Shown: one piece after another, positions 8,557 through 60,207 of the stretch
Numbering within the stretch: position 1 is the first letter of the stretch
Layout: every line of letters begins with the position of its first letter
Assembly: GCA_964480705.1 (NCBI GenBank)
Contig: CAYZPC010000002.1
Coordinates: 22,254 to 86,253 of the forward strand
Direction of reading: 5' to 3'
DNA: 64,000 nt
Source of the DNA: an uncultured archaeon
Lineage (GTDB): Archaea > Iainarchaeota > Iainarchaeia > Iainarchaeales > VGJJ01
Position numbers and translations under genes: made by a program
Notes under the pieces: generated by a model
Seen by the model: only the letters and a program-made list of their open reading frames with translations
The model's database searches: none
Told to the model about the DNA's origin: nothing

Positions 8557-8557
8557 G

Positions 8558-11359: not shown

Positions 11360-11367
11360 TCATCCTT

Positions 11368-29723: not shown

Positions 29724-29729
29724 TCCTCC

Positions 29730-30323
29730 TTACGAAAAGTCGCTTGGAACCGTTGGAACGGTGCTCGCTCCTTCATCTGATTTGAAGAAGGGTTTGGGCG
29801 CATTTCCACCTACAAAAATACTATTGGGAATGAGAGAAATGTAGATGTTGTATTCTCCCACCGTCTCGTTGTAGCGTGTGCGTTCCGTGCTGATGCGATT
29901 TTCCGTTCCTTCTAATTGCACCATCAAATCTTGAAACGCGGCAGTGGCTTTCAACTCGGGATAATTTTCCGTAATCACGAGCAATTTTGAAAGTGTTGAC
30001 TCAAATTGATTCGCCGTGTTGATTCGGTCATTCACATTTGTTTGTGTTTGCCACTGCGAGCGCAATGCTGTTAATTCAGTAAGCGTATCTTGCTCAAATC
30101 CTGCAACGCCTTTTACTGTGTTCACTAAATTTGGAATTAAATCGAAGCGTCGTTGATATTGTACTTCTACATTTGCCCATGCCCCGTTCACTTGTTGTTC
30201 GCGGATGGTTTCTCCATTGTATATTCCTACAACCCACATTCCAAGAATGAGTACGATAACAATTCCCGCGGCCAATGGTGCCCAGGATGGTAGTTGATTA
30301 TTTTTTTCAGCCATGATTAACAC
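29730..30323 (-). CDS. lemA: LemA-family membrane protein
   Basis: N-terminal TM then ...QYQRRFDLIPNLVNTVKGVAGFEQDTL...LRSQW LemA signature; 6-bp gap to TPM gene. Confidence 0.8.
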   Translation of the reverse strand: MLIMAEKNNQLPSWAPLAAGIVIVLILGMWVVGIYNGETIREQQVNGAWANVEVQYQRRFDLIPNLVNTVKGVAGFEQDTLTELTALRSQWQTQTNVNDRINTANQFESTLSKLLVITENYPELKATAAFQDLMVQLEGTENRISTERTRYNETVGEYNIYISLIPNSIFVGGNAPKPFFKSDEGASTVPTVPSDFS

Positions 30324-42180: not shown

Positions 42181-44028
42181 TTATGCGCGGTCCATCAATT
42201 TCATTTTTGGATAAATTCCCAATGCTTTCAATTCGTCGAGCAAGAGTTTGAATCCGTATGACATTTGCACCGGGTACACGCTCGTACTCTCACACATGGG
42301 GCAGTATCTCTTCTTTCGGATTTGGTCATTCACGGCAATGACTCCGCAGTTATCACAAACGAGTTCGGTGACTTTGTCCGAATCATCAATGAACTTTTCC
42401 TGCAACAGCATGGCAGCACCGTGTCCAACCAAGGTTTCTCCTTCCATTTCTCCGAAACGGAGTCCGCCTTCCTTTTCTTTTCCTTCCGTAGGCTGGCGCG
42501 TGAGGATTTGCACCGGTCCGCGGGAGCGTGCTTGAAGCTTGTGCGCAACCATGTGGAATAATCGACGATAGGCAATGACACCCGTGTAGATTTCTCCTTC
42601 AATTTTCTTTCCAGTTCGTCCGTCGTAGAAGGCTTCTTTTCCATCGGAGCGGAAACCGAAGTGTTCCAAAATTTTCTTCGATTCTTCAACGGGATCCTCG
42701 TTAAACGGTGTTCCATCAATTGTTTTTCCGCCCAATGCAGCGGCTTTTCCGGTGAGCATTTCGAGCATGTGTCCAATGGTCATTCGCGTAGGAATGGCGT
42801 GCGGGTTCAGCATCAAGTCGGGTCGCACACCGCTTTCGGTGAAAGGCATGTCTTCTTCGGGAATGATTGCTCCCAATACTCCTTTTTGTCCGTGTTTGGA
42901 GGCAAATTTGTCGCCCGGTTCTGGCGTCATGCATGAGCGGACTTTCACTTTAGCAATGCGTGCACCCGATGTTCCTTCGGTTAAAATAACGCGGTCAACA
43001 ACTCCAGGCTTTCCTTTTCGGGGAAAGAGCGAGGCTTCGCGTCGTTTTTCTTGAATGACACCAAATTCGGTGATTTCTTCTAAGAATCGCGGCGGGGATG
43101 TTTTTCCAATAATCACGTCTTTGTCGGAGACCGATGTTTCCAACTCGGCCAAGCCATCAATTCCTAATTTTTTGTAGGGTTCTTCACCTAAATGTCCTAC
43201 CGCGTCTTCGGCGGGGATTTCAAATTTATCCACTTGTCCGCCGGGGTAGCGTGTTTCTTCGCTTTCGTAATTGCGGAAATAGGCAGCGCGTCCGAGTCCT
43301 CGGTCAACAGCGCCTTTGTTCAACACCACTGAGTCTAAAACGTTGAATCCCATGTAGGGCATGATGGCCACGACAAAGTTCTGAATCATCGGCCGTTGAT
43401 CGGTGTTCAAAAAATCCAGTGTTTTAGTTCGCACGAGTTCGCGCTGAGGATAATACAGCAAATAGGATTCGGTGTCCGTGCGCAAATTATAGTTGGCGGA
43501 GGGAATTCCCAATGCTTGTTTGAACACTTTGGCACCATGCAATGTTTTTCCAGCCAAGTTGTGTTCCAAAAAGGGAATCATGGATGAAATGACAGAGAAA
43601 ATTCCCATGGGGTTGATTTCCAAATGCGTTGTTTTGGGAGTAATGTCTTCTTCGCGGAGTGCGACTTGGGCGGTTTCTTCTTCTTCCGCATCCAAGTATT
43701 CAATATATCCCTGGTTGACTAAATCATTCCACGTGAGTTTGCCGTCTTTGATTTGTTTAATAGTTTCTTTTGTCACGCGGGGCTTTCCGCTCTCAACCAC
43801 GATAACGGGTCGCTGCACGCGTCCGGAGTCTGTGTTCACGTACAATTCAAAGTTGTCTTCGTGCAGGGCGATGTTGACATGCGCATCAATTTTTCCTGTG
43901 CGGCGCTTGTTCACCAAGTCTTTGGTCAACTTGTGAATGTCTTTATGGAAACCCACGAGTTTTCCATTCACGAACACTTTTCCTTCTTGTGCAGCCATGT
44001 TTTTTTCACCCCGTCCCTTTTTCTCCAA
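42181..44028 (-). CDS. rpoB1: DNA-directed RNA polymerase subunit B' (Rpo2C, C-terminal half of split RpoB)
   Basis: ...KFASKHGQKGV...; C-terminal Zn motif CDNCG...CPMCES. Confidence 0.9.
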   Translation of the reverse strand: MEKKGRGEKNMAAQEGKVFVNGKLVGFHKDIHKLTKDLVNKRRTGKIDAHVNIALHEDNFELYVNTDSGRVQRPVIVVESGKPRVTKETIKQIKDGKLTWNDLVNQGYIEYLDAEEEETAQVALREEDITPKTTHLEINPMGIFSVISSMIPFLEHNLAGKTLHGAKVFKQALGIPSANYNLRTDTESYLLYYPQRELVRTKTLDFLNTDQRPMIQNFVVAIMPYMGFNVLDSVVLNKGAVDRGLGRAAYFRNYESEETRYPGGQVDKFEIPAEDAVGHLGEEPYKKLGIDGLAELETSVSDKDVIIGKTSPPRFLEEITEFGVIQEKRREASLFPRKGKPGVVDRVILTEGTSGARIAKVKVRSCMTPEPGDKFASKHGQKGVLGAIIPEEDMPFTESGVRPDLMLNPHAIPTRMTIGHMLEMLTGKAAALGGKTIDGTPFNEDPVEESKKILEHFGFRSDGKEAFYDGRTGKKIEGEIYTGVIAYRRLFHMVAHKLQARSRGPVQILTRQPTEGKEKEGGLRFGEMEGETLVGHGAAMLLQEKFIDDSDKVTELVCDNCGVIAVNDQIRKKRYCPMCESTSVYPVQMSYGFKLLLDELKALGIYPKMKLMDRA

Positions 44029-44030
44029 CC

Positions 44031-45506
44031 TTACTTCAAATACACGTCCATTCCTTTCAGCAATTTTTCAACTGGTTCAGGATTCACATCCTGTGTAACT
44101 TCCGAGAACAATCCCAAATTCTTCACCAAACCACATTGGGGTCCGTCCGGCGTTTCAATACAGCAAAGTCTTCCCCAGTGCGTTCCGTGAACATCACGCG
44201 CTTCATACAGTTCGCGGTTTTTGTTCAACGGAGATTTAACTTTTCGGAATTCCGTGAGGGGTCCCAAATAGTTCACGCGGTCCATGAAGCGTGAAACACC
44301 TGTTGAGCGGCCAATCCAGTTTCCGGTGCTCATTCCGAACAGAATACGTTCAGTCACGGCGCCGGGGCGAACAACCGTTGAAATGTTTAATTTTCGTCTT
44401 CGTGTGACGGTTCGGTCGATTTGGAATGTCAAATCTTTAATGAAATATTTGAATGAATGTCGGAACAAATGTTCCATGAGTTTTCCCGATAATTCGAGTC
44501 GCTTGTTGGCGTAATGATCCTTGTCATCTTGTCCGCGCAATCCGTTGGCTCGTTCAATGGCACGTGTGGCCATGGTGGAGAGGAAGTATGCTTTCGCGCG
44601 GCGGTCATCTTTCTTGTCTCCGATGTGCGGGAGCAAGAATGCGTCGATGACTTCTTGCGCTCGTCGGAGGCGATAATCAATAACTTGTCCCGGCGCCACA
44701 TATTTACCGATTCGATCCAAGGCTTCTTCTTCATCTTTCACGTCCATGGCTTCCATGTTGATGATGACATCATTCATGATCTCATTGAGAGATGGGAATG
44801 CTTCGAGAATTTCTTTTTCGGTTTTGAGTCCTAATGCTTTCAACAGCACAAACAATCGCAGCTTGCGCGGAGAGGCTGGAAAACTGACGCTCAACAAACC
44901 ATCTTTAGCGCGTGTAACACGTACACGTCCTTTGAATGCACCTTTGGTGGAGATAACTTCGGCGCTTGTTTTGTCATCCGCTGATTCGGTGATGAGAATT
45001 CGGTCCGAGGAGAGAACTTCCTGCGCAGTCAATGCTTTTTCGCTTCCATTGATGACGAAGTATCCGCCGAAGTCCATGGGGTCTTCTCCCATTGAGATTA
45101 ATTCCTCAGCTGTTTTTCCTTGCAGGTGGCACAATTTTGATTTCAACATCACGGGCAGTTCGCCGATGTATGTTTTCTTCACGTCTTGTTCAACATCGCG
45201 TCGTAACAAGCGCATGGTGAGGAACAACGGTGCCGAGTATGTTCGGTTTCGCATGCGTGCTTCCATGGGATAAAAATCATTTCGCGGAGAACCATCGGCT
45301 TCCACGATGCGCGGTTTCAACACTTCAATGTCTTCGAGTTCAATTCGAACTTCTTCAATTTTCGGCGTAATGGTTTTGTTTTCGTGAATAATTTCAGTAA
45401 GTTTGTCATCTACAAATTGATTGTAGGAGTTGATGTTCATCTGCGCGAAGTTGCGAGACTTAAACCAGCTTTCTACGAGTGCGTATTGATCCCAACCTTG
45501 CGCCAT
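44031..45506 (-). CDS. rpoB2: DNA-directed RNA polymerase subunit B'' (Rpo2N, N-terminal half of split RpoB)
   Basis: 491 aa N-terminal RpoB domains; immediately upstream of B'. Confidence 0.9.
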   Translation of the reverse strand: MAQGWDQYALVESWFKSRNFAQMNINSYNQFVDDKLTEIIHENKTITPKIEEVRIELEDIEVLKPRIVEADGSPRNDFYPMEARMRNRTYSAPLFLTMRLLRRDVEQDVKKTYIGELPVMLKSKLCHLQGKTAEELISMGEDPMDFGGYFVINGSEKALTAQEVLSSDRILITESADDKTSAEVISTKGAFKGRVRVTRAKDGLLSVSFPASPRKLRLFVLLKALGLKTEKEILEAFPSLNEIMNDVIINMEAMDVKDEEEALDRIGKYVAPGQVIDYRLRRAQEVIDAFLLPHIGDKKDDRRAKAYFLSTMATRAIERANGLRGQDDKDHYANKRLELSGKLMEHLFRHSFKYFIKDLTFQIDRTVTRRRKLNISTVVRPGAVTERILFGMSTGNWIGRSTGVSRFMDRVNYLGPLTEFRKVKSPLNKNRELYEARDVHGTHWGRLCCIETPDGPQCGLVKNLGLFSEVTQDVNPEPVEKLLKGMDVYLK

Positions 45507-45989: not shown

Positions 45990-46241
45990 TTAGCGTTTTT
46001 TCTTCTTCTTTTTCCGGGAAGACGGGCTCTTTGGGCTCCGCGCAATCATGTCCTCATGCACTTCCTTCATGGGGTTAGCGAAGAGTCCATAGAAAATAAT
46101 GGCCAGCAGGAGAACGAGCAGCCCCCACGTGCGATGGGTTTCCACGAGAAGCAGTGCAACGGCGAGCACGAGCAGGATGGCGACTCCAAAGAGGTATTGT
46201 TTCATACACCGCTCGTGTTTCCCGGAGTTAAAAAAACCCAA
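45990..46241 (-). CDS. small membrane protein (83 aa, 2 TM, poly-Lys C-terminus)
   Basis: ORF track; hydrophobic core; ends SRKKKKKKR. Confidence 0.35.
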   Translation of the reverse strand: MGFFNSGKHERCMKQYLFGVAILLVLAVALLLVETHRTWGLLVLLLAIIFYGLFANPMKEVHEDMIARSPKSPSSRKKKKKKR

Positions 46242-46342
46242 GCATGTGAAAAATCGCCCATATTCAACCGGCGAAAGCGCGTAATTCTAACGAATTTTTT
46301 GGCGAACAAAGCGTTGCACGAGCCCGAAATCAAGGATAAGGT

Positions 46343-46350
46343 ATTTATAG
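46343..46350 (+). promoter_or_regulatory. candidate TATA box (ATTTATAG) centred ~25 nt upstream of the GT2 ATG (leaderless-type promoter)
   Basis: Sequence aaggtATTTATAGgcgaattgggtccattccgccATG; spacing typical of archaeal leaderless transcripts. Confidence 0.35.
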
Positions 46351-46371
46351 GCGAATTGGGTCCATTCCGCC

Positions 46372-47367
46372 ATGAAAACCGCTCCCAGTACGTCCCAAAA
46401 CGAAATCGTTGTCCTAATGCCGGCACGCAACGAGTCGCGAAACATTCCGTCGGCACTCTACGCAGTCAATTCCTCTCAGAATGTGGATGGTTCCATTCAC
46501 ACGATTGTGGGCGCGAACGCATGCACCGACAACACGGTAGAAGTGCTGGAAACCCTTAAGCTTAAACAAAAAAATTTGGATTATGTGGTGGAGAGCGTTC
46601 CAGGAAAACCGCGTGCATTAAACGCATTAATTGATCGCGCGGAAAAAACGAGAAAAATGAGCGGAGACGATGTGGTTTTATTTTTGGATGCCAATGCCCA
46701 CGTGCAGGATTCCACTATTTCAGACTTGACGGTGATGTTGAAGCAAAACAAAAACCTCAACGCTGTCACTGCAAATGATGTAAGCCCCGTTCCTGCGAGC
46801 GGTTCAGTGTTGGAACACTTGTTGTTTGGCGTGAGTGAAATTTCATTATCATCGTTGGCATTGCGCGATCGAAAAGCATCGTGTATGGCGGTTCGCGCCA
46901 AAGCAGTGCGCGGAGTACGCTTCCCCGAGAATGTAATGGCGGATGATTTGTGGTTGCAAATGTATTTGGGCATTGACACCGTGGACACGCACCCCACCGC
47001 CGCAGTTACTGTGCAAGCCCCTCGAACATTTTTCCGCTTTGCCGAAGCACGAGTGAAACACATGATGGGATTGTATCAGCTTGAAGAATTTTTTTCTCCA
47101 CAACATGTTCGAGAAAATTTTCCCACGGGAACACACGAGCACGCAGAAGCATTGCTGCGCGACGGTGAGTTGCAGGATGAGTTTGTGAAACTTCCCGGAA
47201 TTTATCAAGCCGCCACTCTGCTCGCCATGCCCTTGCATGCCGCATTCAAAGTAGCCGCATGGGTGGGATATCGAATGTCTCCTCAGATGAAGAATCATTC
47301 AAAGCCCATTCCTCAAATGACTGAAGCGCGTTCACGCGCCAAGTCTAGACGCCCCGCGCACGCATAA
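46372..47367 (+). CDS. family-2 glycosyltransferase (possible carotenoid/isoprenoid glycosyltransferase given context)
   Basis: N-terminal VVLMPARNESRNI...; DxD-like region FLDANAHV; GT-A fold pattern. Confidence 0.75.
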   Translation: MKTAPSTSQNEIVVLMPARNESRNIPSALYAVNSSQNVDGSIHTIVGANACTDNTVEVLETLKLKQKNLDYVVESVPGKPRALNALIDRAEKTRKMSGDDVVLFLDANAHVQDSTISDLTVMLKQNKNLNAVTANDVSPVPASGSVLEHLLFGVSEISLSSLALRDRKASCMAVRAKAVRGVRFPENVMADDLWLQMYLGIDTVDTHPTAAVTVQAPRTFFRFAEARVKHMMGLYQLEEFFSPQHVRENFPTGTHEHAEALLRDGELQDEFVKLPGIYQAATLLAMPLHAAFKVAAWVGYRMSPQMKNHSKPIPQMTEARSRAKSRRPAHA

Positions 47368-47421
47368 TTATCACGCGTCGCGTGTGCGCAGGCTAATATA
47401 CTTTTTTTCATTCATACACGT

Positions 47422-47745
47422 ATGAGTTTCACATACGCACTCTATTTGCTTTTCGCCCTCGCGGGGACGCTTGCATTTATGCGTGTGTTTACTATTTCAT
47501 TCACCACAAAGCAAATGAAAGCCATTTTATTTTCGCTGCTGGCAACGATGATTGTTTTCACCGCGTGGGATATGTGGGCCGTGGAACAAAAACACTGGTC
47601 ATTTGGTCTGCAGCACACGCTGAACATTTTGATTGGCAATCAACCCCTTGAAGAAATAGCATTTTTTCTCGTGATTCCATTTTTTGGAATCGTTTTGTGG
47701 GAGATGATGGGGAAATTCACCCAAACGAGGGCGAAAACAAAATGA
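47422..47745 (+). CDS. lycopene cyclase domain protein, subunit 1 of heterodimeric cyclase (CrtYc-like)
   Basis: ~100-aa 3-TM protein with conserved PLEEIAFFLVIPF (P.EE..FF) motif. Confidence 0.7.
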   Translation: MSFTYALYLLFALAGTLAFMRVFTISFTTKQMKAILFSLLATMIVFTAWDMWAVEQKHWSFGLQHTLNILIGNQPLEEIAFFLVIPFFGIVLWEMMGKFTQTRAKTK

Positions 47746-48035
47746 TGCAATACACACTCGCGGTTTCCATTGGATTTTTTCTCGTAATGGCACTTGACCG
47801 CGCGCTGCGCACGAATATTATTCGACTCACCCCCCAATTAGTGTTCACTACTCTAATTTTCCTCACATTTCAGCTTATTTTTGATAATTATTTTACCGCG
47901 CTAGGGATTTGGGTGTTCAATCCAAGCGAAACGCTTGGAATTTTTGTTCCATTCATTCCAATAGAAAATTTATTTTTCGGAATTGAAATGCTTTGGTTTA
48001 CACTAATTCTTTTTGAATGGTCGCAGAGGAAATGA
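47742..48035 (+). CDS. lycopene cyclase domain protein, subunit 2 (CrtYd-like); ATGA start/stop overlap with subunit 1
   Basis: 3-TM protein with PIENLFFGIEMLWF motif; track ORF begins earlier at 47697 in the same frame. Confidence 0.7.
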   Translation: MMQYTLAVSIGFFLVMALDRALRTNIIRLTPQLVFTTLIFLTFQLIFDNYFTALGIWVFNPSETLGIFVPFIPIENLFFGIEMLWFTLILFEWSQRK

Positions 48036-48568
48036 GAATGTGGAAAAAAATTCGCCGCAAGTGGGGCCGCGCCCTTTTTTTGAAAAATATTAATAAGCTC
48101 ACGCAGCGAATTGAACGCAATTATGCTGAGTTAGAACACATCTACGAACCATTAGGTGACATTGAAAATATGTTTGCGCTGAATAAAAAAATTGGCGCAG
48201 ACATACAGCAGATTGAGCACGAAAAACTGAAACGTAAAAAGGGATGGCGCGGCCTGATTCGCGCGGCGTGGGCATGGAGGGCCTATCGCGATTTGCGCGA
48301 ACAAAAATTTATCAAAAGCACCAGTTCAGAACAATACATCAAAGCTCGCGATGCATTGATTCGGATTGATTTATTGGAGCTGGGCCTGAAGAAAGAAATT
48401 CTCTCCGATAGAGAGGCATCTGAATTGTTTGTGCTTCGCCGTCAAAAAAAGAATTTTGAGAAGGCAGTTGCTAATTATCAAAAAGCGGTTGTGCTGGCAG
48501 CTGCGCGAAAAGAAAGGAAGTCTATTTCTTCGCGAAAATCTTCTCCGCACACGTCCGGGCAGAAATAA
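48017..48568 (+). CDS. hypothetical basic alpha-helical protein (183 aa)
   Basis: ORF track only; overlaps CrtYd by 19 bp and the convergent crtI 3' end by 47 bp. Confidence 0.3.
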   Translation: MVAEEMRMWKKIRRKWGRALFLKNINKLTQRIERNYAELEHIYEPLGDIENMFALNKKIGADIQQIEHEKLKRKKGWRGLIRAAWAWRAYRDLREQKFIKSTSSEQYIKARDALIRIDLLELGLKKEILSDREASELFVLRRQKKNFEKAVANYQKAVVLAAARKERKSISSRKSSPHTSGQK

Positions 48569-50072
48569 GCACCATGGGCATTCCTCCCCCTGGATGGGTG
48601 CTCGCACCCACAAAATACAAATGGTTGAATTCTTCGCTTTTTTGAGAGGGTCGGAAAACGCTGCTCTGCATGAATGTGGGAGAAAGTCCAAACGTCGCGC
48701 CGAAATTCATTCCGCTCAGCGCTTCCCACTCATTTGGAGTGAGCATTTCCTGCATGCGGATGTGTTTTTTCAAATTAGTGAGACCATTTTTTTCAAGTTG
48801 CGCAATGATTTTTTCTGCAAACTCTTTTTTTATTGAATTCCAATCGATGGGATGTCCATTTTTGGGATCGTTGGAGGGAACGGGAACGAGCACATACAGC
48901 AAATGCTTTCCCTTCGGGGCTAATGTTGAGTTGGTGCGCGAGGGCACGTTCACATAAATGCTTGGACTTGTTGAGAGTACTTTTTGTTCGAATAATTCGT
49001 GGAAGTTTTTCAAAAAATCCTCGCAGAAAAACACATTGTGATGCAGCAGCTGCGGGTAATCCGTGTCCACTCCCAGATAGAGCATGAATGCCGAGCACGT
49101 GTATTCGAGTTTTTTTAATTTTTCATCGGAATATTTTTTCCGAGATGTAGCGTGAATCAATTTTGAATACGTGGCCGGCAAATCCACATCGGACACTATT
49201 TTTTCCGCGCGAATAACTTCATTTGTATCGAGGCGAATTCCCGTTGCGGTGTTATTTTCAATCACAATCTCGGAAACATTTTTTCCATAATGGATTTTTA
49301 CTCCTAATTCGAGCGCGAGTTTTTCTATTTCGCTCACAATGGAGTATATTCCATTTTGGGGGTACCACACGCCCTGCGCTAATTCCACGTAGGGGACAAT
49401 GGTGTATGTTGCCGGCGTTAAGAGTGGGCTTTGTCCTAAGTACATGCTCTGAAAGCTGAATGCGAGTTTTATTTTTGGATTCGTAAAAAAGGTTGACATG
49501 TGGTCCCACATCGAGTGGAAGCCGTCCGCGTGTAAGAATGATAAAAATTTTCCCGAGAGGACGATATCCCAAATGGATGTGGGGGATTGGGCGATGAAAT
49601 TGGAGTAAACGTTTTCATACACCTCGTATTCGTGTTCGAGAAAGCGCAAAAACCCTCGCGCATCTTCAGGAGAAACGCGTTTTATTTCGCGGAGCATTTC
49701 GGGAAGATTCGAACTTACATCTAAGTGTTGTGCGTCCCAAAAATGCAAGCGGTACGATGGGGTGAGCAGGTTGATGGGCAGCACATCCTGCATTTTTTTT
49801 CCGCAGTAAGCAAATAACTCTTCAAATTCTCCCGGCATGAGGAGGAAAGTCGGTCCCAAATCAATGGTGTATCCTTTTACCTTTCGCTGCGCCGCTCTTC
49901 CCCCGGGAAAAGCGTTTTTTTCGTATATTTCCACGCGCTTACCCTGTTTAGCGAGGCGGCATGCGAGGGCAAGCCCCCCGAGTCCGGCGCCAATAATGAT
50001 GATTTCAGGCTCCCCTGCCGGAGAAGAGTGGAGTGTTTTGGCTCGTGTGCGGGAAGAAGATGGGGCTGCCAT
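48522..50072 (-). CDS. crtI: phytoene desaturase family FAD oxidoreductase (CrtI-like)
   Basis: IIIIGAGLGGLALACRLAKQGKRVEIYEKNAFPGGRA dinucleotide fold; ~500-aa CrtI length; downstream of crtB. Confidence 0.85.
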   Translation of the reverse strand: MAAPSSSRTRAKTLHSSPAGEPEIIIIGAGLGGLALACRLAKQGKRVEIYEKNAFPGGRAAQRKVKGYTIDLGPTFLLMPGEFEELFAYCGKKMQDVLPINLLTPSYRLHFWDAQHLDVSSNLPEMLREIKRVSPEDARGFLRFLEHEYEVYENVYSNFIAQSPTSIWDIVLSGKFLSFLHADGFHSMWDHMSTFFTNPKIKLAFSFQSMYLGQSPLLTPATYTIVPYVELAQGVWYPQNGIYSIVSEIEKLALELGVKIHYGKNVSEIVIENNTATGIRLDTNEVIRAEKIVSDVDLPATYSKLIHATSRKKYSDEKLKKLEYTCSAFMLYLGVDTDYPQLLHHNVFFCEDFLKNFHELFEQKVLSTSPSIYVNVPSRTNSTLAPKGKHLLYVLVPVPSNDPKNGHPIDWNSIKKEFAEKIIAQLEKNGLTNLKKHIRMQEMLTPNEWEALSGMNFGATFGLSPTFMQSSVFRPSQKSEEFNHLYFVGASTHPGGGMPMVLISARTCAEKIFAKK

Positions 50073-50093
50073 ACTGAAATATACTTTTGCACC

Positions 50094-50978
50094 CTATTTT
50101 GTTTTAATGTGCGCGGAAAGCGCTGTTTTTTCGGCGTGCAATAATTCTTTTTTTCGTTCATCTGAAACGTAAACGCGTTCCGTGTACACATCGTAGTTTC
50201 TTTTTTCTATCTCATTCAGTATTTCACGGTAGAATACGAGGCTGAGGCGCATTCCTAATTGTGCTTCGCGCGGAAGGTGTGCAATTCCTTCTTCGGAGCG
50301 CGTGTAATAGTCCCGCGCCCGCGTGATTTGATAATGCATCATTTTTCGAAAGGCGTCATTTTGTTCGCGCGATGCAATTTGGGAGTGAGTGTAATTGAAT
50401 TGTTTCAACTCGTCCTGGGGCAAATATACTCTTCCTGCATCGTGGTCTTCTTTTACGTCGCGCAGAATATTAGTGAGTTGCATCGCCACACCTAATTCAA
50501 TTGCATGTTCTAATGCGGAATGCGGCGCGCGGAGGACGTATGCCATGAGCAATCCGGGGATTGCTGCGGCAGAGAAGCAGTATTCGTATAGTTCGTCAAA
50601 ATTTTCATATGATTTTTTGTCTAAATCTTTTTCCAACCCATCCATTAGGCGGAAACCCCATTCGCGTGGAATAGCATACTGTCTGCACGTCTGCACAAAC
50701 GCATGCAAAATAGGGTCGGGGGAGGTTTCATTCTCCCACGCCAGAGTGAGATTGTTTCTCCACTCATTCAATCGAAGTTTTTTTTCCGCGAGCGATAAAT
50801 TTCCATCCACGATTTGATCAGTAACACGGCAAAAACCATAGGTTGCGTACGCGGCTAAGCGTTCTTTTTCAGGCAGATGCTCGGCAGCAAGGGAAAAACT
50901 AGTGGCGTGTTTTCGGCAAAGTTTTTCGGAATGAGAAAAATCAATGGCGGAAGTGTCCATTGTATTGGAAAGGCTCAT
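50094..50978 (-). CDS. crtB: phytoene synthase (squalene/phytoene synthase family)
   Basis: YCFSAAAIPG and QLTNILRDVKEDHDAGRVYLP motifs. Confidence 0.85.
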   Translation of the reverse strand: MSLSNTMDTSAIDFSHSEKLCRKHATSFSLAAEHLPEKERLAAYATYGFCRVTDQIVDGNLSLAEKKLRLNEWRNNLTLAWENETSPDPILHAFVQTCRQYAIPREWGFRLMDGLEKDLDKKSYENFDELYEYCFSAAAIPGLLMAYVLRAPHSALEHAIELGVAMQLTNILRDVKEDHDAGRVYLPQDELKQFNYTHSQIASREQNDAFRKMMHYQITRARDYYTRSEEGIAHLPREAQLGMRLSLVFYREILNEIEKRNYDVYTERVYVSDERKKELLHAEKTALSAHIKTK

Positions 50979-51053: not shown

Positions 51054-52253
51054 TTACCACCCGTAATGGGCAGCGCGCGAGTATCCGAATGCGAGGAATG
51101 CATCCACCACGCCTTTTTGGTATAAGTCATAGTTGTGCGAGAGCACGTTGAATCCGACTTTTGCTTTATCCACGGCAGTCAGGTTGGATAATTCTTGAGG
51201 CATTAAGTGTCCAATGCGGTTTAACTCGTCTTCGGTAAAATTGTAGAGCGCATTTTTTCCTTTGATTATTTTTCCATAGGAGGGGAATTCATTGCGCCAC
51301 TTTTTTTCATACGTTGACAAAAAAGTTTTTGAAAAATTGGAATGAGTGAATGCGTCTTTTGCTACTTCCGCAGCCATGCGTCCGCTGACTAATCCTAATT
51401 GGGTTCCCCCTTCAAATAGTGGAGAAGTGAATCCCGCCGCATCGCCAATCAAAATGATTCCATCTCCCACCGTGTTTTGCACGGGTCCCGATGAGGGAAT
51501 GGGTCCGCCGAATGTTTTCACTATTTTTTTGTTTTGCCAATTCATTTCTTTCACGAATTGGTCCAAATACATTTTTGCTTTGGTGATATCAGTAGTCACA
51601 AGCCCCACATTGGCTCGCCCATCATTTTTGGGAATCATCCACAAATAGCCATGGGGAGAGAGTCGAGGCCACAAATAAAAGTCTAAATAATTTTCATGTG
51701 GAATATCAAGCATTTCATATTGGATTCCTGTCGTGACACTAAAGCGTGGGTTCATGTTAAGCATGCGGTTGGCCACTCCCGCGGCGCCGGAAGCGTCGAT
51801 AACCATGCGTGCGCGCACCATTCCTTGAGATGTTTGAATCTCCCACACATCATTTGTTCGGGCTAAACTGGTTACGCGCGTGGATAATGATAAGTGTGTG
51901 CCCGCATTCTGTGCCTCGTTTGAAAGCCATTTTTCAAACGCGTGTTTCTCTAAAACATATCCGGCTTCAGTTAATTTCACTTTGTGCGAGTCGGGAAAAA
52001 TAACATTGACTCCTTTGACCGGAAGGGCGATGACTTCTTTGGGAAATTTCATGTTGATGCGAACTTCAGCCATTTCACTTAAGCATTCCCCGCAGTGCAC
52101 CGGGTCTCCCACGCTGGCGTGTTCTTCAAGAATTACTGTCTTGAGCCCCATTTTAGACGCATGAATCGCCGCACTTCCCCCAGCGGGGCCTGCACCAATG
52201 ATGGCAATATCATACAGTGTCTGCGTGTCTAAGGTCATAGTATCATCGGCCAT
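51054..52253 (-). CDS. geranylgeranyl reductase family FAD-dependent oxidoreductase
   Basis: YDIAIIGAGPAGGSAA, HCGECLS motif characteristic of archaeal GGR. Confidence 0.8.
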   Translation of the reverse strand: MADDTMTLDTQTLYDIAIIGAGPAGGSAAIHASKMGLKTVILEEHASVGDPVHCGECLSEMAEVRINMKFPKEVIALPVKGVNVIFPDSHKVKLTEAGYVLEKHAFEKWLSNEAQNAGTHLSLSTRVTSLARTNDVWEIQTSQGMVRARMVIDASGAAGVANRMLNMNPRFSVTTGIQYEMLDIPHENYLDFYLWPRLSPHGYLWMIPKNDGRANVGLVTTDITKAKMYLDQFVKEMNWQNKKIVKTFGGPIPSSGPVQNTVGDGIILIGDAAGFTSPLFEGGTQLGLVSGRMAAEVAKDAFTHSNFSKTFLSTYEKKWRNEFPSYGKIIKGKNALYNFTEDELNRIGHLMPQELSNLTAVDKAKVGFNVLSHNYDLYQKGVVDAFLAFGYSRAAHYGW

Positions 52254-52292: not shown

Positions 52293-52904
52293 TTAGTGTC
52301 CTGCGGCCTTTCGTCCTTCCATGAGGCGCATGTTCTGAACAAACGTCTCGGGGTTTTTCCAATTAAGATTTTTCATGAAGGCTTCAATGTAGTCTTTGCG
52401 TTTCGTTCCATAATCCAAAAAGTACGCGTGTTCATACACGTCGAGTATGAGAACAGGAGAGCAAGACCAAATTCCACCGTGGTTGTGCACGTCCGCAATG
52501 TAGTTGTGTAACTTCATGTCTTCCCAATCGAATGCGAGCACAACCCATCCGCGTGCGCATAATCCCAATGCCTTAAACTCGGCTTCCCATTTTTCATAGG
52601 AACCAAAATCTTGCTCAATCATATGAAGCAAATCCCCTGCTGGTTTTCCACCGTTTCCACCCATCGCGGCAAAATATCCTTCGTGCAAGCGCACCCCATT
52701 CACGGCAAATCCTTCTTCAAGTTTGAGTTCGCGCAAATCGGAGTGTGTTCCATTGGCTTTCGTCAAATCCACTGTTTTCAATTTTTCGCGGATTTCATCT
52801 GTTTTTTTCACGTACCCCACGTACAACACGTCGTGGTGCTCGGCCAATTGTTTTTCGGTTAGACCATTGAGGGCTTTGTAGGTTAAGGGTTTGGGTTCGG
52901 TCAT
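52293..52904 (-). CDS. sod: Fe/Mn superoxide dismutase (start at internal Met MTEPKPL)
   Basis: ...LDVYEHAYFLDY signature; upstream 110 codons of the track ORF overlap the methyltransferase gene. Confidence 0.85.
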   Translation of the reverse strand: MTEPKPLTYKALNGLTEKQLAEHHDVLYVGYVKKTDEIREKLKTVDLTKANGTHSDLRELKLEEGFAVNGVRLHEGYFAAMGGNGGKPAGDLLHMIEQDFGSYEKWEAEFKALGLCARGWVVLAFDWEDMKLHNYIADVHNHGGIWSCSPVLILDVYEHAYFLDYGTKRKDYIEAFMKNLNWKNPETFVQNMRLMEGRKAAGH

Positions 52905-52974
52905 GAGAATCACTCCTATCGTGAACGATATGTAACATTCGTTAATCAAAATGGCTTTAAACGACACCTCGTGT

Positions 52975-53634
52975 TTAGCGGGGGCGCATAAAAAGCACCA
53001 CGTATCCAGCCGAAAGCGGTTGGGCGTGCGTGCGCAGCGCAGGGGAGGTCGTTTCTGCCACGGGAACCTTTTCCACGAGGACGCGGCACCCCTCAAGAGA
53101 CGAAAGGGTGGAGAGTTTTTCCAAATACGCTTCTTCAACGCGGGACATTTCTCCCTCAAACGCATGCGTTCCGTGTGCGTCGCGGAAACGAATCCATAGG
53201 TAGGCACGCCCCCCGGGGGCGAGAGCGTGAGCAATGCGCGGCAATAGAGTGGAAAAGTTTCCTATTTCATGCAGGGCGCGAAAACTAACTATAATATCGC
53301 ACTCCCTCGACAGTGGAACCGTGTGCACATCCCCCTGAATGAATTCATCCAGCATGCGAGAGTCTTCGAGCGGGAGCAAGTCCACCCCTACCGTATGCAC
53401 TAAACTGCTCACGTGTTGCTTGACTTCGTGCAGCGCTTGTCCATTTCCGCAGCCAATGTCCAATATTCGACACGACCCTTTTTGGCGAATATATTCGGCC
53501 GCCATTTTTTCCAGAGGAGTGTTTTCTCCGAGGTTTTGCAGAAAGGTGTTGTATTGTTTTAGCGTCTGGTCGCGGAGAATGACTCCTTGCGCGTACCGTT
53601 CGCGGTATTTTTGGGCAGTATTTTCGAATGTCAT
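52975..53634 (-). CDS. class I SAM-dependent methyltransferase (start at internal Met MTFENT)
   Basis: ILDIGCGNGQAL motif I; post-I acidic residue VGVDL. Confidence 0.7.
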   Translation of the reverse strand: MTFENTAQKYRERYAQGVILRDQTLKQYNTFLQNLGENTPLEKMAAEYIRQKGSCRILDIGCGNGQALHEVKQHVSSLVHTVGVDLLPLEDSRMLDEFIQGDVHTVPLSRECDIIVSFRALHEIGNFSTLLPRIAHALAPGGRAYLWIRFRDAHGTHAFEGEMSRVEEAYLEKLSTLSSLEGCRVLVEKVPVAETTSPALRTHAQPLSAGYVVLFMRPR

Positions 53635-53662
53635 GAGTGTCCTACTGAATTGAAACGAATCA

Positions 53663-54091
53663 TTATTGCAGTGCGCGCTGCTGTTCGGATATTTTTTCTT
53701 TAAGTTGTGAAATGGGAATGCGTCCGGACTTTCCCGATAATTCATCGTGATAATACAATATGGTTGGTTCGTCAAATTGCCAGCATAATAATATTTCTCT
53801 ATTTTCAAATGTGGAATAAAAATCCACTAACCCTTGGGTGACGTCTTTTACATAGCACCCCAATCGAGTGAGTGCTTCCAACTCCGCAAAATATTTGAAT
53901 GATAATTCATGATAGCGTTTGTTGATGTTGATTGCCAAAAGGTGAGCCTGCCAGTCGAATGTGTCGGCGTGCACTTTCACTCCCGACAGTGCGGAGAGTT
54001 CATCGTGAATAGACATGAGCTTCTCCAAGTGTAACTTCACTTTGGGAAGCAGCCGCTCGGCTTCGTGCAATGTAAAATACCGGTGAGCCAT
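53663..54091 (-). CDS. conserved hypothetical protein (DUF2203-like)
   Basis: N-terminus MAHRYFTLHEAERLLPKVK resembles DUF2203 proteins; assignment from memory only. Confidence 0.4.
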   Translation of the reverse strand: MAHRYFTLHEAERLLPKVKLHLEKLMSIHDELSALSGVKVHADTFDWQAHLLAININKRYHELSFKYFAELEALTRLGCYVKDVTQGLVDFYSTFENREILLCWQFDEPTILYYHDELSGKSGRIPISQLKEKISEQQRALQ

Positions 54092-54129
54092 TCTCGTATT
54101 CGTTTTCTTTTCTTTTTAAGAGTGTCCGC

Positions 54130-55647
54130 TCATCGTGCGAATTTTTGCACACGCGCGCGGATTTTCTTGTACGCGGTGCGTGCCTGAATGGTTTGTGCAA
54201 GTTTTTCATCCGTTTTTTGCGGTCGTGTGAGATTTTCAGGGCGCATTATTTTTTCTATTTCAGTCGGGGTCAGAAGTCCTTCGGCTCGAATGATTTTTTC
54301 TACACTCACATGATTAGCCATGGCCTTTTTCACCATGAATGCGACCACATCATATCCTAAGTATGGATTCAGTGCAGTAGCGGTGGAGACGCTTTGTTGC
54401 AGCAGCATGTTCATGCGCGGCGTGGGGCGAATTTTTTTCAAACATTTTTCGCGGAACATTTTCAATCCGTTTGTTAAAAGTTCTTGCGACTCAAACAAGT
54501 TGCTTCCCATCACGGGCGTCATGACATTCAATTCAAGCTGCGTTGCCTCGCAGCTCAAACGGATGGTTTCATGATTTCCCTGCACGTGCAACGCGATCAT
54601 TTTCATTGCTTCTAAAATACTTGGGTTGATTTTTCCCGGCATGATGCTGCTTCCCGGTTCCACTTCCGGCAAGTGAATTTCTCCTATTCCAGCATACGGG
54701 TCTGAACCCAGGAGTATCCAGTCATTCATCCAAATCAGTAAGTCGCTCGCAAGTGTTGAGAGTGCATCCGAGTAGCGTTGAAACACACTCATGTGGCTCG
54801 TGTGATACATTTTTCGGTGCGAGGGGTAGAATGGAATGCCCGTCTCGCTGCGCAAGCGTTTAACCACTGCCACATCATACCCTGGTTCAGCGGTTATGCC
54901 CGTTCCGACTGCCGTCCCCCCAAGTGAGAGTTCGTGCATTTTTTCCTTGGTGGAGCGGATGCTCTGCCAGTCCTCGCGGAGGGATTGGGCGTACACGTAC
55001 AATTCTTGTCCAAATGTCACAGGCACGGCTGTTTGCAAGTGAGTGCGCCCTGTTTTGCTGGTGGTGCGGTAGTGGTGAGAAAGTTCCTCCGCGGCGTGAA
55101 TTGTTTCCATGAGTTCTTTTTCCAAGTGCGCAGAATACGATAATGTCGTGAGGCGAAGCGCCGTGGGAATGACATCATTAGTGGACTGCGCCATATTCAC
55201 ATGAATGTTTGGATGTATGCGCGCGTATTTTCCTTTGCGTTCTCCCAGCATTTCGAGCGCGCGATTGGCGATGATTTCATTCATCATCATGTTCAACGGT
55301 GTTCCCGCGCCGGCTTGAAACACATCTAAGTCAAACAGCTCATCAAATTTTCCGCGTTGAACTTCCTGTGCCGCGCGCACAATGGCATTTCCTTCTTTTG
55401 GTGGTAGTCTGCCCGCGTGCACATGTTCTTGCGCGGCAACCTGTTTCAATAATGCTAATCCATGATAGAAAGAGATGGGAAACCGTCTTGTTGAAAGTGA
55501 AAAGTTTTCATGAGCACGTGCGGAGAATATTCCTGTGTATGAATTAGCGGGAATGATTTTGGTGCCAATGGAATCTTGTTCGTGCCGCACTGTTTTGGAT
55601 GTGCGTCGTTTAGCGTGAGTGGGCATGTGTTTTTCTCCATTTTTCAT
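54130..55647 (-). CDS. class II fumarate hydratase / aspartate ammonia-lyase family enzyme (fumarase favoured by context)
   Basis: GSSIMPGKINPSILEA signature loop; ...GTAVGTGITAEPGYD...; 4-bp ATGA overlap with sdhB stop. Confidence 0.8.
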   Translation of the reverse strand: MKNGEKHMPTHAKRRTSKTVRHEQDSIGTKIIPANSYTGIFSARAHENFSLSTRRFPISFYHGLALLKQVAAQEHVHAGRLPPKEGNAIVRAAQEVQRGKFDELFDLDVFQAGAGTPLNMMMNEIIANRALEMLGERKGKYARIHPNIHVNMAQSTNDVIPTALRLTTLSYSAHLEKELMETIHAAEELSHHYRTTSKTGRTHLQTAVPVTFGQELYVYAQSLREDWQSIRSTKEKMHELSLGGTAVGTGITAEPGYDVAVVKRLRSETGIPFYPSHRKMYHTSHMSVFQRYSDALSTLASDLLIWMNDWILLGSDPYAGIGEIHLPEVEPGSSIMPGKINPSILEAMKMIALHVQGNHETIRLSCEATQLELNVMTPVMGSNLFESQELLTNGLKMFREKCLKKIRPTPRMNMLLQQSVSTATALNPYLGYDVVAFMVKKAMANHVSVEKIIRAEGLLTPTEIEKIMRPENLTRPQKTDEKLAQTIQARTAYKKIRARVQKFAR

Positions 55648-56486
55648 GTTCTTCTTCGTTTAGGAGAGTTTTTCTCTTTTTGAAGGGCGCTCATTTCACG
55701 AATGCGGTCTCCAGGGGCAATGTTCCGGGGGCACCAATTGGCCTTTTCCAAGGAATAGTGCACGGGGAGCATGGTCGAGTACCCTTCCACGCGTCGAGTA
55801 TCCCCATCCCGCATGTCAAACGTGTAGCGGTAGGCCTTTACCCACGCGGCCGGCCCTATCTCTCCGGCGTTTTTTCCATTCGTTTGAACAGAAGAAACAT
55901 TGGCATTGCAGAGTCCGCAGAGGATGCACTCCTGCGTCCGTGAGAGTTTTTTGACGTCATTTACTCCCATTTTGTGGTGTCTTCGCTCATCGTGTTTGCG
56001 CGGCACCACCCAGGGTTTGATTCGCAGTAATTCATCGAAGAATGGTTTTTCATCCACCACCAAATCTTTTATCACGCGCTCCACGTCTAAGGGTTCAATC
56101 CGCAGCGTGCGCGCGTGCGTGTCCATAGCATCGGAGACTTGTGTCACGCACCCCAATACGGGTTTTCCATTCACTTTTACTCCGCATGAACCGCATCCCC
56201 CGTAGCCGCAGCTTCCTCGAAAGGTCAAGCTTCCATCCTGCGTGTGTTTGATGCGCGTGAGTAAATCCAACACGCTTTCTCCTGGGTTTGCGTGGAGCGC
56301 ATATTCGTGGGTGCGCGGGTAGAAGTCCATTTCGGGATTGAATCGCGTCACGCGAACGTGCATAAGTGAATGTGTTTCCGTACGAATAGTGGCCGCGCGC
56401 GTGGATGCGCGTGTTTTCTTTTTTCGCACTATCTTTCGAGTCGCTTTTTTCGATTTTGAAGAGGATGAGCGTGTTTTTTTGGCCAT
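55644..56486 (-). CDS. sdhB: succinate dehydrogenase/fumarate reductase iron-sulfur subunit, atypical (8 Cys only), basic N-terminal extension
   Basis: [2Fe-2S] CGYGGCGSCGV...C and CILCGLC...WCP; canonical [3Fe-4S] ligand positions are V and absent. Confidence 0.8.
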   Translation of the reverse strand: MAKKTRSSSSKSKKATRKIVRKKKTRASTRAATIRTETHSLMHVRVTRFNPEMDFYPRTHEYALHANPGESVLDLLTRIKHTQDGSLTFRGSCGYGGCGSCGVKVNGKPVLGCVTQVSDAMDTHARTLRIEPLDVERVIKDLVVDEKPFFDELLRIKPWVVPRKHDERRHHKMGVNDVKKLSRTQECILCGLCNANVSSVQTNGKNAGEIGPAAWVKAYRYTFDMRDGDTRRVEGYSTMLPVHYSLEKANWCPRNIAPGDRIREMSALQKEKNSPKRRRT

Positions 56487-56487
56487 A

Positions 56488-58200
56488 CTAGTAGTGCCTC
56501 GCCTCAGGAGAATATCCTTTGATGATAACAGGTTTGTAATTCAGCTGAACATTTTCCCCGTGTTGAGTGGCGAGCGTGTGTTTCAGCCATTTTTGATCAT
56601 TGCGCGTAGGATAGTCTGTTCGCGCGTGGCTGCCTCTTGTTTCCGTTCGCGCAAGTGCGCTCGCGAGAATGGATTGGGAAAATGTCACGAGGTTTTGGCA
56701 TTCGAGTGCGGCGATTAAGTCCGTGTTGAATGTGTGTGAGGTGTCTTCGGCACGAATAGCACGTGCTGGCGTGTGGAGTTTTTTCCACGCGTTCATGGCG
56801 CGAGTCAAACTTGCTTTGTTTCGATACACGCCGCAGTCATTCATCATCACGCGCTGGAGTTTCTCTTGAATAATGTGGCTTTTTTCTCCCCGTTGCGCGG
56901 TGAGAATGGTTTGAATCCGTTCGCGGGCTTTTTCAACATGTTCGGTTGAAATGGGTGCGTGGTTTTTTCCGTGTTCGCGCACGTATGCAGCCATTTGCTG
57001 TCCGGCGATGCGTCCGAATACTAATGTTTCAAGCAGAGAGTTTCCTCCCAGGCGGTTGGCGCCGTGCACGCTCGCGCAGGCCACTTCTCCTGCGGCAAAT
57101 AATCCATGCAGGGGAGTGTTGTGCGCGTCAGTAGTTACACGTGTGTGAATGTCCGTGGGCACGCCCCCCATACTATAGTGAGCAGTGGGTACCACAGGGA
57201 TGAGTTCGCGCACGCAGTCTATTCCGAGTTGTTCGTGCACTGTTTTTCGTATTTCGGGGATTTTTTCCATAATGGTTTTTTCTCCCAAATGTCGAACGTC
57301 CAAGTACACGTGGTCTTTTTTTTCTCCCGCGCCTCTTCCTTGGAGTATTTCAGTGGCAATGGCGCGCGCAATCACGTCGCGTGAGGCAAGTTCCATTTTT
57401 TGCGGAGCATATTTTTGCATGAATCGTTCATTTTTTCCATTGAGCAAAAAGGCTCCTTCTCCGCGCGAGGCTTCACTCACAAGAAATCCTTTTCCATACA
57501 TCCCACTCGGATGAAACTGGACCATTTCCATATCTTCTAATGGCAATCCCGCGTTATACGCGAGTACGAGTCCGTCTCCCGTGCAGATTCGCGCATTTGA
57601 AGTAGTGGAGAATGCTCTCCCATATCCTCCCGTCGCTAGCAGCGTGGCGTGGGCGCGTGCCACCAGTAGTTTTCCTTTTTCCATGTCCCACAACACCGCG
57701 CCCTTGCACGCGTTGTTTTCAATGATGAGAGAAAGCGCGTAATATTCTGGATACACCGTCGGGTGTGCTTTCAGGAGTTGGTCATACGTCGTGTGCAAGA
57801 GCATGTGCCCCGTGCGGTCGGACGCATAGCATGTGCGTGCCACACTTTGTCCGCCGAATGGGCGTTGGGCAATTTCTCCTTTGGTTGTGCGTGAAAAAAC
57901 CACTCCCCAGGATTCCATTTCGCGTATTCGCGCGGGGGCGTCTTTGCATAATAGTTCAACCGCATCCTGGTCTGCGAGAAAATCGCTCCCATACACGGTG
58001 TCGCGGAAGTGGGCTTTCCAGTCATCATCTGCAGAGAGTGCGGCATTAATCCCTCCCGCGGCGGCTACCGAGTGTGAACGCACGGGATGAACTTTGGAAA
58101 TGATTCCCACATCCATGTTTTGGTTGCGCGCTTCAATCGCCGCGCGTTGTCCCGCGAGTCCGGCGCCAATGATGAGCACATCGTGTGTGAGTTGGGACAT
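56488..58200 (-). CDS. sdhA: succinate dehydrogenase/fumarate reductase flavoprotein subunit
   Basis: LIIGAGLAGQRAA; RSHSVAAAGGINAA (covalent-FAD His); FHPSG; LGGNSLLE. Confidence 0.9.
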   Translation of the reverse strand: MSQLTHDVLIIGAGLAGQRAAIEARNQNMDVGIISKVHPVRSHSVAAAGGINAALSADDDWKAHFRDTVYGSDFLADQDAVELLCKDAPARIREMESWGVVFSRTTKGEIAQRPFGGQSVARTCYASDRTGHMLLHTTYDQLLKAHPTVYPEYYALSLIIENNACKGAVLWDMEKGKLLVARAHATLLATGGYGRAFSTTSNARICTGDGLVLAYNAGLPLEDMEMVQFHPSGMYGKGFLVSEASRGEGAFLLNGKNERFMQKYAPQKMELASRDVIARAIATEILQGRGAGEKKDHVYLDVRHLGEKTIMEKIPEIRKTVHEQLGIDCVRELIPVVPTAHYSMGGVPTDIHTRVTTDAHNTPLHGLFAAGEVACASVHGANRLGGNSLLETLVFGRIAGQQMAAYVREHGKNHAPISTEHVEKARERIQTILTAQRGEKSHIIQEKLQRVMMNDCGVYRNKASLTRAMNAWKKLHTPARAIRAEDTSHTFNTDLIAALECQNLVTFSQSILASALARTETRGSHARTDYPTRNDQKWLKHTLATQHGENVQLNYKPVIIKGYSPEARHY

Positions 58201-59377: not shown

Positions 59378-59413
59378 GCAGTTTTCATCCCATTCGGGCT
59401 TTTTAATGCGCGG

Positions 59414-60181: not shown

Positions 60182-60207
60182 ATCCCAAAGAATAGTGATG
60201 CTCGCGC

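Follow-up and report, generated by a model that had tools for sequence, protein, structure and literature searches.

A 64,000 nucleotide (nt) stretch of DNA from an uncultured archaeon of the Iainarchaeota (Diapherotrites) was analyzed (GenBank assembly GCA_964480705.1, contig CAYZPC010000002.1, positions 22,254–86,253 of the forward strand; termed the window). At positions 46372–50978 the window displays a block of five genes, GT2-crtYc-crtYd on the plus strand and crtI and crtB on the minus strand. As judged from the gene sequences and their distribution, the block is probably a C40 carotenoid module that is native to this DPANN archaeon, was inherited vertically and would make a cyclic carotenoid. 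The system is of a known kind, i.e. CrtB/CrtI/CrtYc-CrtYd; its taxonomic occurrence is new. The five-gene arrangement recurs in relatives with GT2 identities as low as 51%–53%, which is far beyond chance.

The open reading frame (ORF) map agrees with the layout in a first-pass annotation of this DNA, in which crtB and crtI on the minus strand converge on the plus-strand genes GT2, crtYc and crtYd; every ORF is found in the described position and orientation. The five gene identities are also borne out by Pfam and NCBIfam scans. crtB (50094–50978, minus strand) is the first gene of the crtB-crtI unit and encodes a predicted 294 amino acid (aa) phytoene synthase-type enzyme. It displays the SQS_PSY fold and Asp-rich motifs, and scores 245 bits with PF00494 (cut-off 26). 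crtI (48522–50072, minus strand) encodes a 516 aa flavoprotein of the phytoene desaturase family. CrtI scores 470.8 bits with TIGR02734 (cut-off 238.1) and has an N-terminal FAD-binding fold (PF13450) in addition to a match to PF01593.

In the proposed pathway, crtB and crtI would be expressed as one minus-strand unit from a TATA-like box of their own; the sequence TTTTATTAAA is located about 25 nt 5′ of crtB. CrtB would convert two molecules of geranylgeranyl diphosphate (GGPP) to phytoene and CrtI would convert phytoene to lycopene. The archaeal lipid pathway is the proposed source of GGPP, and this would account for the absence of crtE from the cluster. CrtYc and CrtYd would be small integral-membrane half-cyclases held at a fixed ratio through the overlap of their genes. 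As a heterodimer in the membrane they would cyclize one or both ends of lycopene and give gamma- and/or beta-carotene. The most likely function of the carotene would be to protect the membrane of an oxygen-exposed cell, as an antioxidant or against light; alternatively it may feed retinal synthesis via genes located elsewhere. The GT2 is a GT-A enzyme specific to Diapherotrites, and its gene has a separate, conserved promoter-like box.

crtYc (47422–47745, plus strand) encodes the N-type half of a predicted heterodimeric lycopene cyclase with a chain length of 107 aa, and crtYd (47742–48035, plus strand) encodes the C-type half with a chain length of 97 aa. CrtYc scores 32.4 bits with PF18916 (cut-off 27) and 56.8 bits with TIGR03462 (cut-off 39.4); CrtYd scores 38.5 and 47.4 bits with the same models. 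Both ORFs thus pass the two hidden Markov models by which the first-pass annotation had proposed to challenge the cyclase assignment. When fused cyclases are scored domain by domain, their N-domain corresponds to CrtYc and their C-domain to CrtYd. Hydropathy analysis gives about three hydrophobic segments in CrtYc. The start of crtYd is placed at the ATG at position 47742, and not at the GTG of a longer 112 aa ORF, because the two genes then overlap as ATGA at positions 47742–47745. The gene calls on identical public contigs concur. The cyclase is accordingly split into two genes and translationally coupled, as had been described.

A stop codon separates the cyclase halves in the window and in 10 of the 10 DPANN loci examined, which excludes a fused form there. 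Split cyclases are the rule in two DPANN phyla, the Iainarchaeota (Diapherotrites) and the Micrarchaeota, a finding that corrects the working assumption of fused CrtY-type cyclases in Archaea. crtYc has been kept in all relatives examined except at one locus, L011 (GCA_043803765.1), which is described below.

The motif P.EE..FF had been ascribed to both halves of the cyclase. It is present in CrtYc (NQPLEEIAFF), but CrtYd displays IPIENLFF, i.e. P.EN.FF. A literature search for the PLEE motif gave no match. The PxEE motif is found in 53 of 54 fused N-domains. PxED is found in all 55 of the fused C-domains that carry a PxEx motif and in both actinobacterial CrtYd sequences (loci L015 and L016, of which only the cyclase motifs were used, as their guanine-plus-cytosine (GC) content is too high for a simple ORF reading). 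The DPANN CrtYd sequences differ from these: all seven (the window, L008, L009, L018, L014, L019 and L020) have PxEN, which keeps the Glu and has Asn at the position of the Asp of the other sampled cyclases. The conserved PxEN variant could inform cyclase mechanism.

A search with a concatenated profile of the cyclase halves finds Diapherotrites halves and one Micrarchaeota half (41%). Further matches are distant, with ≤45% identity over parts of the sequence. They include fused two-domain cyclases of about 225–235 aa, with named examples from the Bacteroidetes and Thermoplasmatota, and split proteins of about 115–130 aa, with named examples from the Actinobacteria Nigerium, Micropruina, Pilimelia and Intrasporangium. 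In a neighbor-joining (NJ) tree of CrtYc domains, the Diapherotrites and Micrarchaeota form a clade with 63% bootstrap. The DPANN sequences together with bacterial split CrtYc, whose named members are Actinobacteria, are separated from the fused N-domains with 71% bootstrap. Haloarchaeal and Sulfolobus CrtY were not among the matches and the tree offers no direct comparison with them. CrtYc was checked for nesting within the fused archaeal cyclases and is not nested there in this tree, and the earlier label of a bacterial-style split cyclase is a fair one in terms of the NJ grouping.

The homologues of GT2 and CrtI carry the names “Candidatus Diapherotrites archaeon” or “Candidatus Iainarchaeum archaeon”. 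The five-gene block is found at loci L008, L009/L013, L018 and L025, where GT2 identities are 51%–64% and CrtI identities 54%–62%. The gene order is the same as in the window at L008 (GCA_030688545.1, GT2 53%), L009/L012 (GCA_964427715.1, GT2 64%), L013 (an uncultured archaeon, GT2 64%) and L025 (a Logan contig, GT2 53%). At L018, in the 1.05 Mb Iainarchaeum sequence CP064981.1, the block is intact with both flanks different. In nearly all of the Diapherotrites relatives the crt block is beside the rpoH-rpoB operon. Locus L011 (positions 8001–11944) is a case of partial loss: GT2, an intact 510 aa crtI and a geranylgeranyl reductase (GGR) gene are present in unchanged order, but crtB is replaced by a 182 base pair (bp) gap and both cyclase genes by a 50 bp gap, thus leaving crtI as an orphan beside GT2.

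A scan of GTDB species and look-ups anchored on CrtI also revealed three Micrarchaeota-type loci, L014, L019 and L020. Here crtI, crtYc and crtYd are co-linear, crtB is convergent and there is no GT2. With respect to CrtI, homologues from Diapherotrites and Iainarchaeum are 54%–97% identical, those from Micrarchaeota about 40%, and those from Chloroflexota, Dehalococcoidia, Heliophilum and Saccharimonadales 37%–41%. None of the best 120 CrtI matches is from the Actinobacteria or Halobacteria. The NJ tree of CrtI shows a Diapherotrites clade with 100% bootstrap and a 71% bipartition that places it with a group containing the Micrarchaeota, its nearest named relatives.

The composition of the block resembles that of the housekeeping genes. 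GT2, crtYc, crtI and crtB have GC contents of 0.43–0.50 and third codon position values (GC3) of 0.45–0.52, and the rpo, elongation factor and sdh genes have GC3 values of 0.48–0.55; crtYd, which is short and hydrophobic, is the exception. Because of the synteny in diverged relatives, the housekeeping-like GC and GC3, and the split modules of the Micrarchaeota, the module appears to be old and vertically inherited within DPANN, and the crt block appears ancestral to the sampled Diapherotrites. The first-pass annotation had suggested horizontal gene transfer (HGT) of the pathway into this archaeon. This suggestion is not upheld: the block is syntenic at rpoH/rpoB across Diapherotrites/Iainarchaeum, and the nearest outside relatives of CrtI and CrtYc/CrtYd are from Micrarchaeota. 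A recent HGT is rejected, given the native composition and conserved synteny. A transfer between bacteria and archaea is possible, and if it occurred it would be ancient. CrtB, CrtI and CrtYcd of Actinobacteria, Archaea and Bacteroidetes form one lineage that has been attributed to old HGT (PMC2889829), and CrtYcd is known both as two proteins and as one (PMC2889829; PMC10016063).

The GT2 gene (46372–47367, plus strand) encodes a predicted 331 aa glycosyltransferase that scores 37.5 bits with PF13641 (cut-off 27) and 27.9 bits with PF00535 (cut-off 23.3). A word-seeded search gave 25 homologues, all with at least 51% identity and all from archaea, the named ones being Diapherotrites. When 1.84 billion representatives were searched exhaustively with a profile, the GT2's own family has one representative, at 584 bits, and the next matches are at 138 and 131 bits. 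By these searches the GT2 appears to form an isolated, Diapherotrites-specific clade. The AlphaFold2 model (predicted local distance difference test score 80) displays a GT-A fold with a helical C-terminal region. In fold comparisons it is closest to PcManGT, an archaeal N-glycan mannosyltransferase (6yv7, template modeling score 0.53), with hyaluronan synthase also among the best matches; a sequence search of the PDB again gives PcManGT, at 26 bits. The maximum Kyte-Doolittle hydropathy is 1.41 and there is no clear transmembrane helix. The protein is read here as a lineage-specific glycosyltransferase that is probably membrane-peripheral.

A TATA-like box, GGTATTTATAGG, is present at positions 46340–46351 (plus strand), about 25 nt 5′ of the GT2 start codon, and is a putative archaeal promoter. 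The sequence GATAAGGTATTTATAGGC is identical 5′ of GT2 in the window, L009 and L011, about 25 nt before the ATG. TTTATA has just five occurrences in the whole window. The 54 bp spacer between GT2 and crtYc (47368–47421, plus strand) contains a short inverted repeat, a run of seven T residues and TAATATA. T-runs are also found in the corresponding spacers of L008 and L009; TAATATA is not conserved. The promoter-like box and the T-runs are compatible with a separate or attenuated transcription of GT2, but the conservation of the T-run and TATA-like signals of the spacer is too low to decide operon structure.

The first-pass annotation had proposed that the block represents a horizontally acquired pathway of the actinobacterial type for a glycosylated cyclic carotenoid, the GT2 being the carotenoid glycosyltransferase. 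Several findings are in keeping with this. GT2 is co-oriented with crtYc and only 54 bp upstream of it, the two genes have stayed side by side in five or more diverged lineages, also when the surrounding genes are different, and the NJ grouping of DPANN CrtYc with bacterial split CrtYc, as well as the single lineage noted above, would fit with an old HGT. GT2 genes are also known in carotenoid clusters, an example being the Chloroflexi locus L021 (GCA_012729765.1, positions 3755–10489). This locus was found via its CrtI and appears to be a compact cluster of the carotenoid glycoside-ester type: GT2, a PlsY-like acyltransferase, a CruF-like Caroten_synth protein, a fused 278 aa cyclase and DUF6992 are divergent from crtI-crtB. 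However, an enzyme that could make a glycosyl acceptor (a hydroxylase, hydratase or oxidase, e.g. CruF, CrtC, CrtZ or CrtP) was found neither in the window nor in the flanks of six related loci, whereas L021 has the CruF-like protein together with the acyltransferase. To our knowledge, carotenes are without any glycosyl acceptor.

The relationships of the GT2 also speak against this role. L021 supplied the GT2 with which it was compared as a carotenoid glycosyltransferase, authentic CruC and CrtQ sequences not being included, and the two align over only 136 N-terminal columns (hhalign score 51.6), i.e. the generic nucleotide-binding half. No carotenoid glycosyltransferase model is among the NCBIfam matches of the GT2, which are only sub-threshold matches to PgaC, HpnB and others. 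A CruC-like nature of the GT2 is therefore not supported, since the profile match to the L021 protein is N-terminal only and the PDB sequence and fold matches are to generic GT2 enzymes only. The closest outgroup with a usable contig, P0166, is 30% identical over 236 aa and has the signatures ANACTDNT, GKPxALNAL and FPENVxxDLW in common with the GT2. It is on an archaeal contig between RNase Z-like and LonB-like genes, with no crt genes.

The distribution of the GT2 is mixed. It tracks the crt genes in at least five Diapherotrites lineages, yet neither the three Micrarchaeota-type modules nor the split-cyclase clusters sampled from Actinobacteria contain it. At L011 it keeps all of the family-invariant residues while crtB and both cyclase genes are gone. 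A role for the GT2 in carotenoid glycosylation is thus the less likely option on present evidence, and the proposal of a transferred, glycosylated pathway as a whole is unlikely. A related proposal is that the GT2 and the PxEN form of CrtYd act jointly in a hitherto undescribed chemistry; for instance, the cyclase carbocation would be quenched by water and the hydroxylated end group glycosylated by the GT2. This is a quite improbable scheme; if true, it would give a new archaeal carotenoid glycoside with no canonical hydroxylase or hydratase.

The module might instead mainly supply beta-carotene for retinal, with a Blh/Brp-type dioxygenase encoded elsewhere in the genome and the product feeding a rhodopsin. 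The usual path to retinal in haloarchaea and some protists is CrtB-CrtI-CrtYc/CrtYd with Blh (PMC10016063), and a minimal three-step module with no tailoring genes suits a precursor role. Pfam and NCBIfam scans of the window, however, found no Blh and no opsin gene, nor a UbiA-type elongase, CrtZ or CruF, and neither Blh nor opsin was found in the flanks examined. Retinal supply as the main role is about as improbable as the glycosylated pathway.

A C30 route, in which a CrtM/CrtN-like synthase and desaturase would make a diapocarotenoid and the GT2 would be CrtQ-like, is very unlikely. CrtQ of staphyloxanthin synthesis is a GT2, the best PDB matches of CrtB are CrtM-type enzymes, and the neighbors of CrtI in the tree include a heliobacterial protein and a Dehalococcoidia protein annotated as dehydrosqualene desaturase. 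The ranking of the CrtB matches is nevertheless biased, because the PDB holds, as far as we know, hardly any genuine CrtB. A CrtP-type oxidase that would provide a carboxyl acceptor is not found in the window or the flanks, and the two conserved cyclase subunits are of a kind that acts on psi-ends of C40/C50 carotenoids. The residue of CrtB that aligns with Phe26 of CrtM is also small, as in C40-capable enzymes: it is Ala in four Diapherotrites/Iainarchaeum CrtB sequences and Ser in three Micrarchaeota-type sequences, whereas it is Phe in the C30 synthases 8is6, 5iys and wild-type 2zco. F26A in CrtM is a known substitution that enlarges product size (PMC4510654). The small residue at this position and the conserved cyclase pair would favor the route from GGPP via phytoene and lycopene to gamma- or beta-carotene.

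That the cluster is decaying and no longer functional is extremely unlikely, for although L011 has lost crtB and both cyclase genes and the PxEN motif of CrtYd is unusual, the window and five or more diverged lineages have every ORF intact, the motifs are kept at 48%–57% identity, and PxEN is itself conserved across two phyla.

Some points weigh against a native C40 pathway to a cyclic carotenoid. CrtB is below every NCBIfam equivalog cut-off. Its best score is with HpnD (214 vs. 279), and with the three CrtB equivalog models it reaches 206 of 550 bits (cyanobacterial CrtB), 170 of 500 and 132 of 480; the protein appears too divergent for any equivalog model. The tree neighbors of CrtI mentioned above leave a small probability for C30 chemistry. 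The Asn that CrtYd carries in place of the Asp of the other sampled cyclases might change the activity or lower it. Scans of the window with Pfam and NCBIfam models did not find a GGPP synthase. The GT2 stays attached to the crt block despite the rearranged flanks of L018, and this linkage argues for some functional tie. Lastly, the trees are rough NJ trees from short alignments (about 100 columns for CrtYc) with few named taxa.

DPANN archaea are usually portrayed as metabolically reduced. A complete CrtB-CrtI-CrtYc/CrtYd module, conserved in two DPANN phyla, indicates that they may produce their own pigment. A recent reconstruction inferred that the ancestors of several DPANN lineages largely lacked carotenoid pathways (PMC13195033). 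Literature searches on Diapherotrites, Iainarchaeum and DPANN combined with carotenoid, lycopene cyclase and phytoene found no description of the module in Diapherotrites or Micrarchaeota, although the genes have already been machine-annotated as lycopene cyclase domain proteins in public metagenome-assembled genomes. The gains here are the extension of the carotenoid module to two DPANN phyla, the revised view of archaeal cyclases as not always fused, the PxEN variant and the orphan GT2.

The gene order around the block is rpoH, a small membrane ORF (minus strand), GT2-crtYc-crtYd (plus strand) and crtI-crtB-GGR-superoxide dismutase-methyltransferase-DUF2203 (minus strand). The space from crtYd to the 3′ end of crtI is taken up by an additional ORF, which is missing from the earlier description. 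This ORF, orf183 (48017–48568, plus strand), encodes a predicted basic, helical and soluble protein of 183 aa. It shares 19 bp with crtYd and 47 bp with the 3′ end of crtI, and has no match in Pfam, NCBIfam or PHROG. It is called as a gene on contigs L001–L003 and at L008, where the ORF in the same slot is 29% identical over 107 aa (E-value = 5e-4), and is absent from L009, L013, L018 and L025. It could be an over-call, or else an accessory gene that evolves rapidly.

The small membrane ORF (45990–46205, minus strand) is divergent from GT2 and encodes 71 aa from its ATG, with two transmembrane segments and a Lys-rich tail. It is called on all related contigs with 30%–41% identity by tblastn, and it has no Pfam or NCBIfam match.

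The GGR gene next to crtB (51054–52253, minus strand) encodes a 399 aa flavoprotein of the geranylgeranyl reductase family (TIGR02032, PF22578) and is a neighbor of the block, not part of its core. Geranylgeranyl reductase functions in archaeal lipid saturation. The protein is 75%–80% identical in relatives and the gene does not adjoin crtB in L018. It was considered as a second cyclase of the CrtY/CrtL type and rejected: TIGR02032 is passed (201.5 vs. 158.8) and the match to PF05834 reflects the shared FAD fold.

Beyond it, positions 52293–58200 (minus strand) contain genes for an Fe/Mn superoxide dismutase, a class-II fumarase and succinate dehydrogenase/fumarate reductase (a Fer2_3 protein and the flavoprotein). 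These genes suggest an oxygen-exposed metabolism, which is unusual for the DPANN stereotype; taken with the crt module, the adjacent genes for superoxide dismutase, succinate dehydrogenase and fumarase point to a life exposed to oxygen or light. Positions 58238–61473 (minus strand), which are 7–10 kilobases from the crt block, encode a GT4, a second GT2 (255 aa, PF13506/Glyco_transf_21) and a second GGR-like flavoprotein (421 aa), and may be a further lipid- or glycan-related group.

On its other side the crt block is immediately upstream of the rpoH-rpoB operon. At positions 42181–45506 (minus strand), RNA polymerase subunit B is encoded as two polypeptides, B″ (491 aa) and B′ (615 aa), with rpoH before them. 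The housekeeping genes of the window are archaeal, i.e. rpoH, the split rpoB, rpoA, EF-2, EF-1alpha and ribosomal protein operons, and nearly all are on the minus strand. Between the translation-factor and ribosomal operons, at positions 28779–30323 (minus strand), there are genes for a LemA family protein and then a TPM-domain protein, which are commonly paired as a membrane module. A 627 aa low-complexity protein rich in Pro, Ala, Ser and Thr, with no Pfam match, is encoded at positions 25918–27801 (minus strand), and its gene accounts for a GC-skew spike of 0.29 at 26–28 kilobases. The adjoining ORF (23834–25831) has a chain length of 665 aa and only a sub-threshold Ig-like match.

With regard to known systems, the cyclase resembles in its gene structure the actinobacterial CrtYc/CrtYd of the Brevibacterium and Mycobacterium type, which is also found in Myxococcus. 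In both, the genes are adjacent, overlapping and code for about 100 aa with one PF18916/TIGR03462 domain each, the N-type subunit comes first and carries PxEE, crtI and crtB are in the same cluster, and the CrtYc sequences group in the NJ tree. However, the window CrtYc is only 33%–39% identical to its actinobacterial counterparts, and over part of its length, and CrtYd has PxEN where the actinobacterial protein has PxED. Unlike the actinobacterial clusters, the window cluster has no crtE, idi or CarH-type regulator, its host is an archaeon, and crtB-crtI are convergent to the cyclase genes and not co-linear with them. The order at the actinobacterial loci L022 and L023 is crtE-crtI-crtB-crtYc-crtYd-desaturase and that at L024 is similar; none of the three has a GT2.

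The CrtYcd cyclase family is already known in Archaea (PMC2889829). The fused CrtY of the Halobacterium salinarum and Sulfolobus solfataricus type, and CrtYcd of Bacteroidetes, share with the window proteins the domain family, the domain order and the position in the pathway. They differ in that the cyclase is one polypeptide and not two, and fused N-domains are on the opposite side of the 71% bipartition. Clusters of the CruC/CrtQ type for glycosides or glycoside esters, of which L021 is the example, also have a GT2/GT-A gene beside a PF18916 cyclase and near crtI and crtB; there the GT2 is accompanied by a CruF-like hydratase and an acyltransferase, and the window GT2 by neither. The closest named relatives are the Micrarchaeota modules (GCA_026414185.1, GCA_964577555.1 and isolate SKW29), with about 40% identity in CrtI and about 48%–54% over the best segments of CrtYc/CrtYd. 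Their crtI is co-linear with the cyclase genes, and they have neither the GT2 nor the rpoH neighborhood, but they share with the window the split, tightly packed cyclase genes and the combination of PxEE and PxEN.

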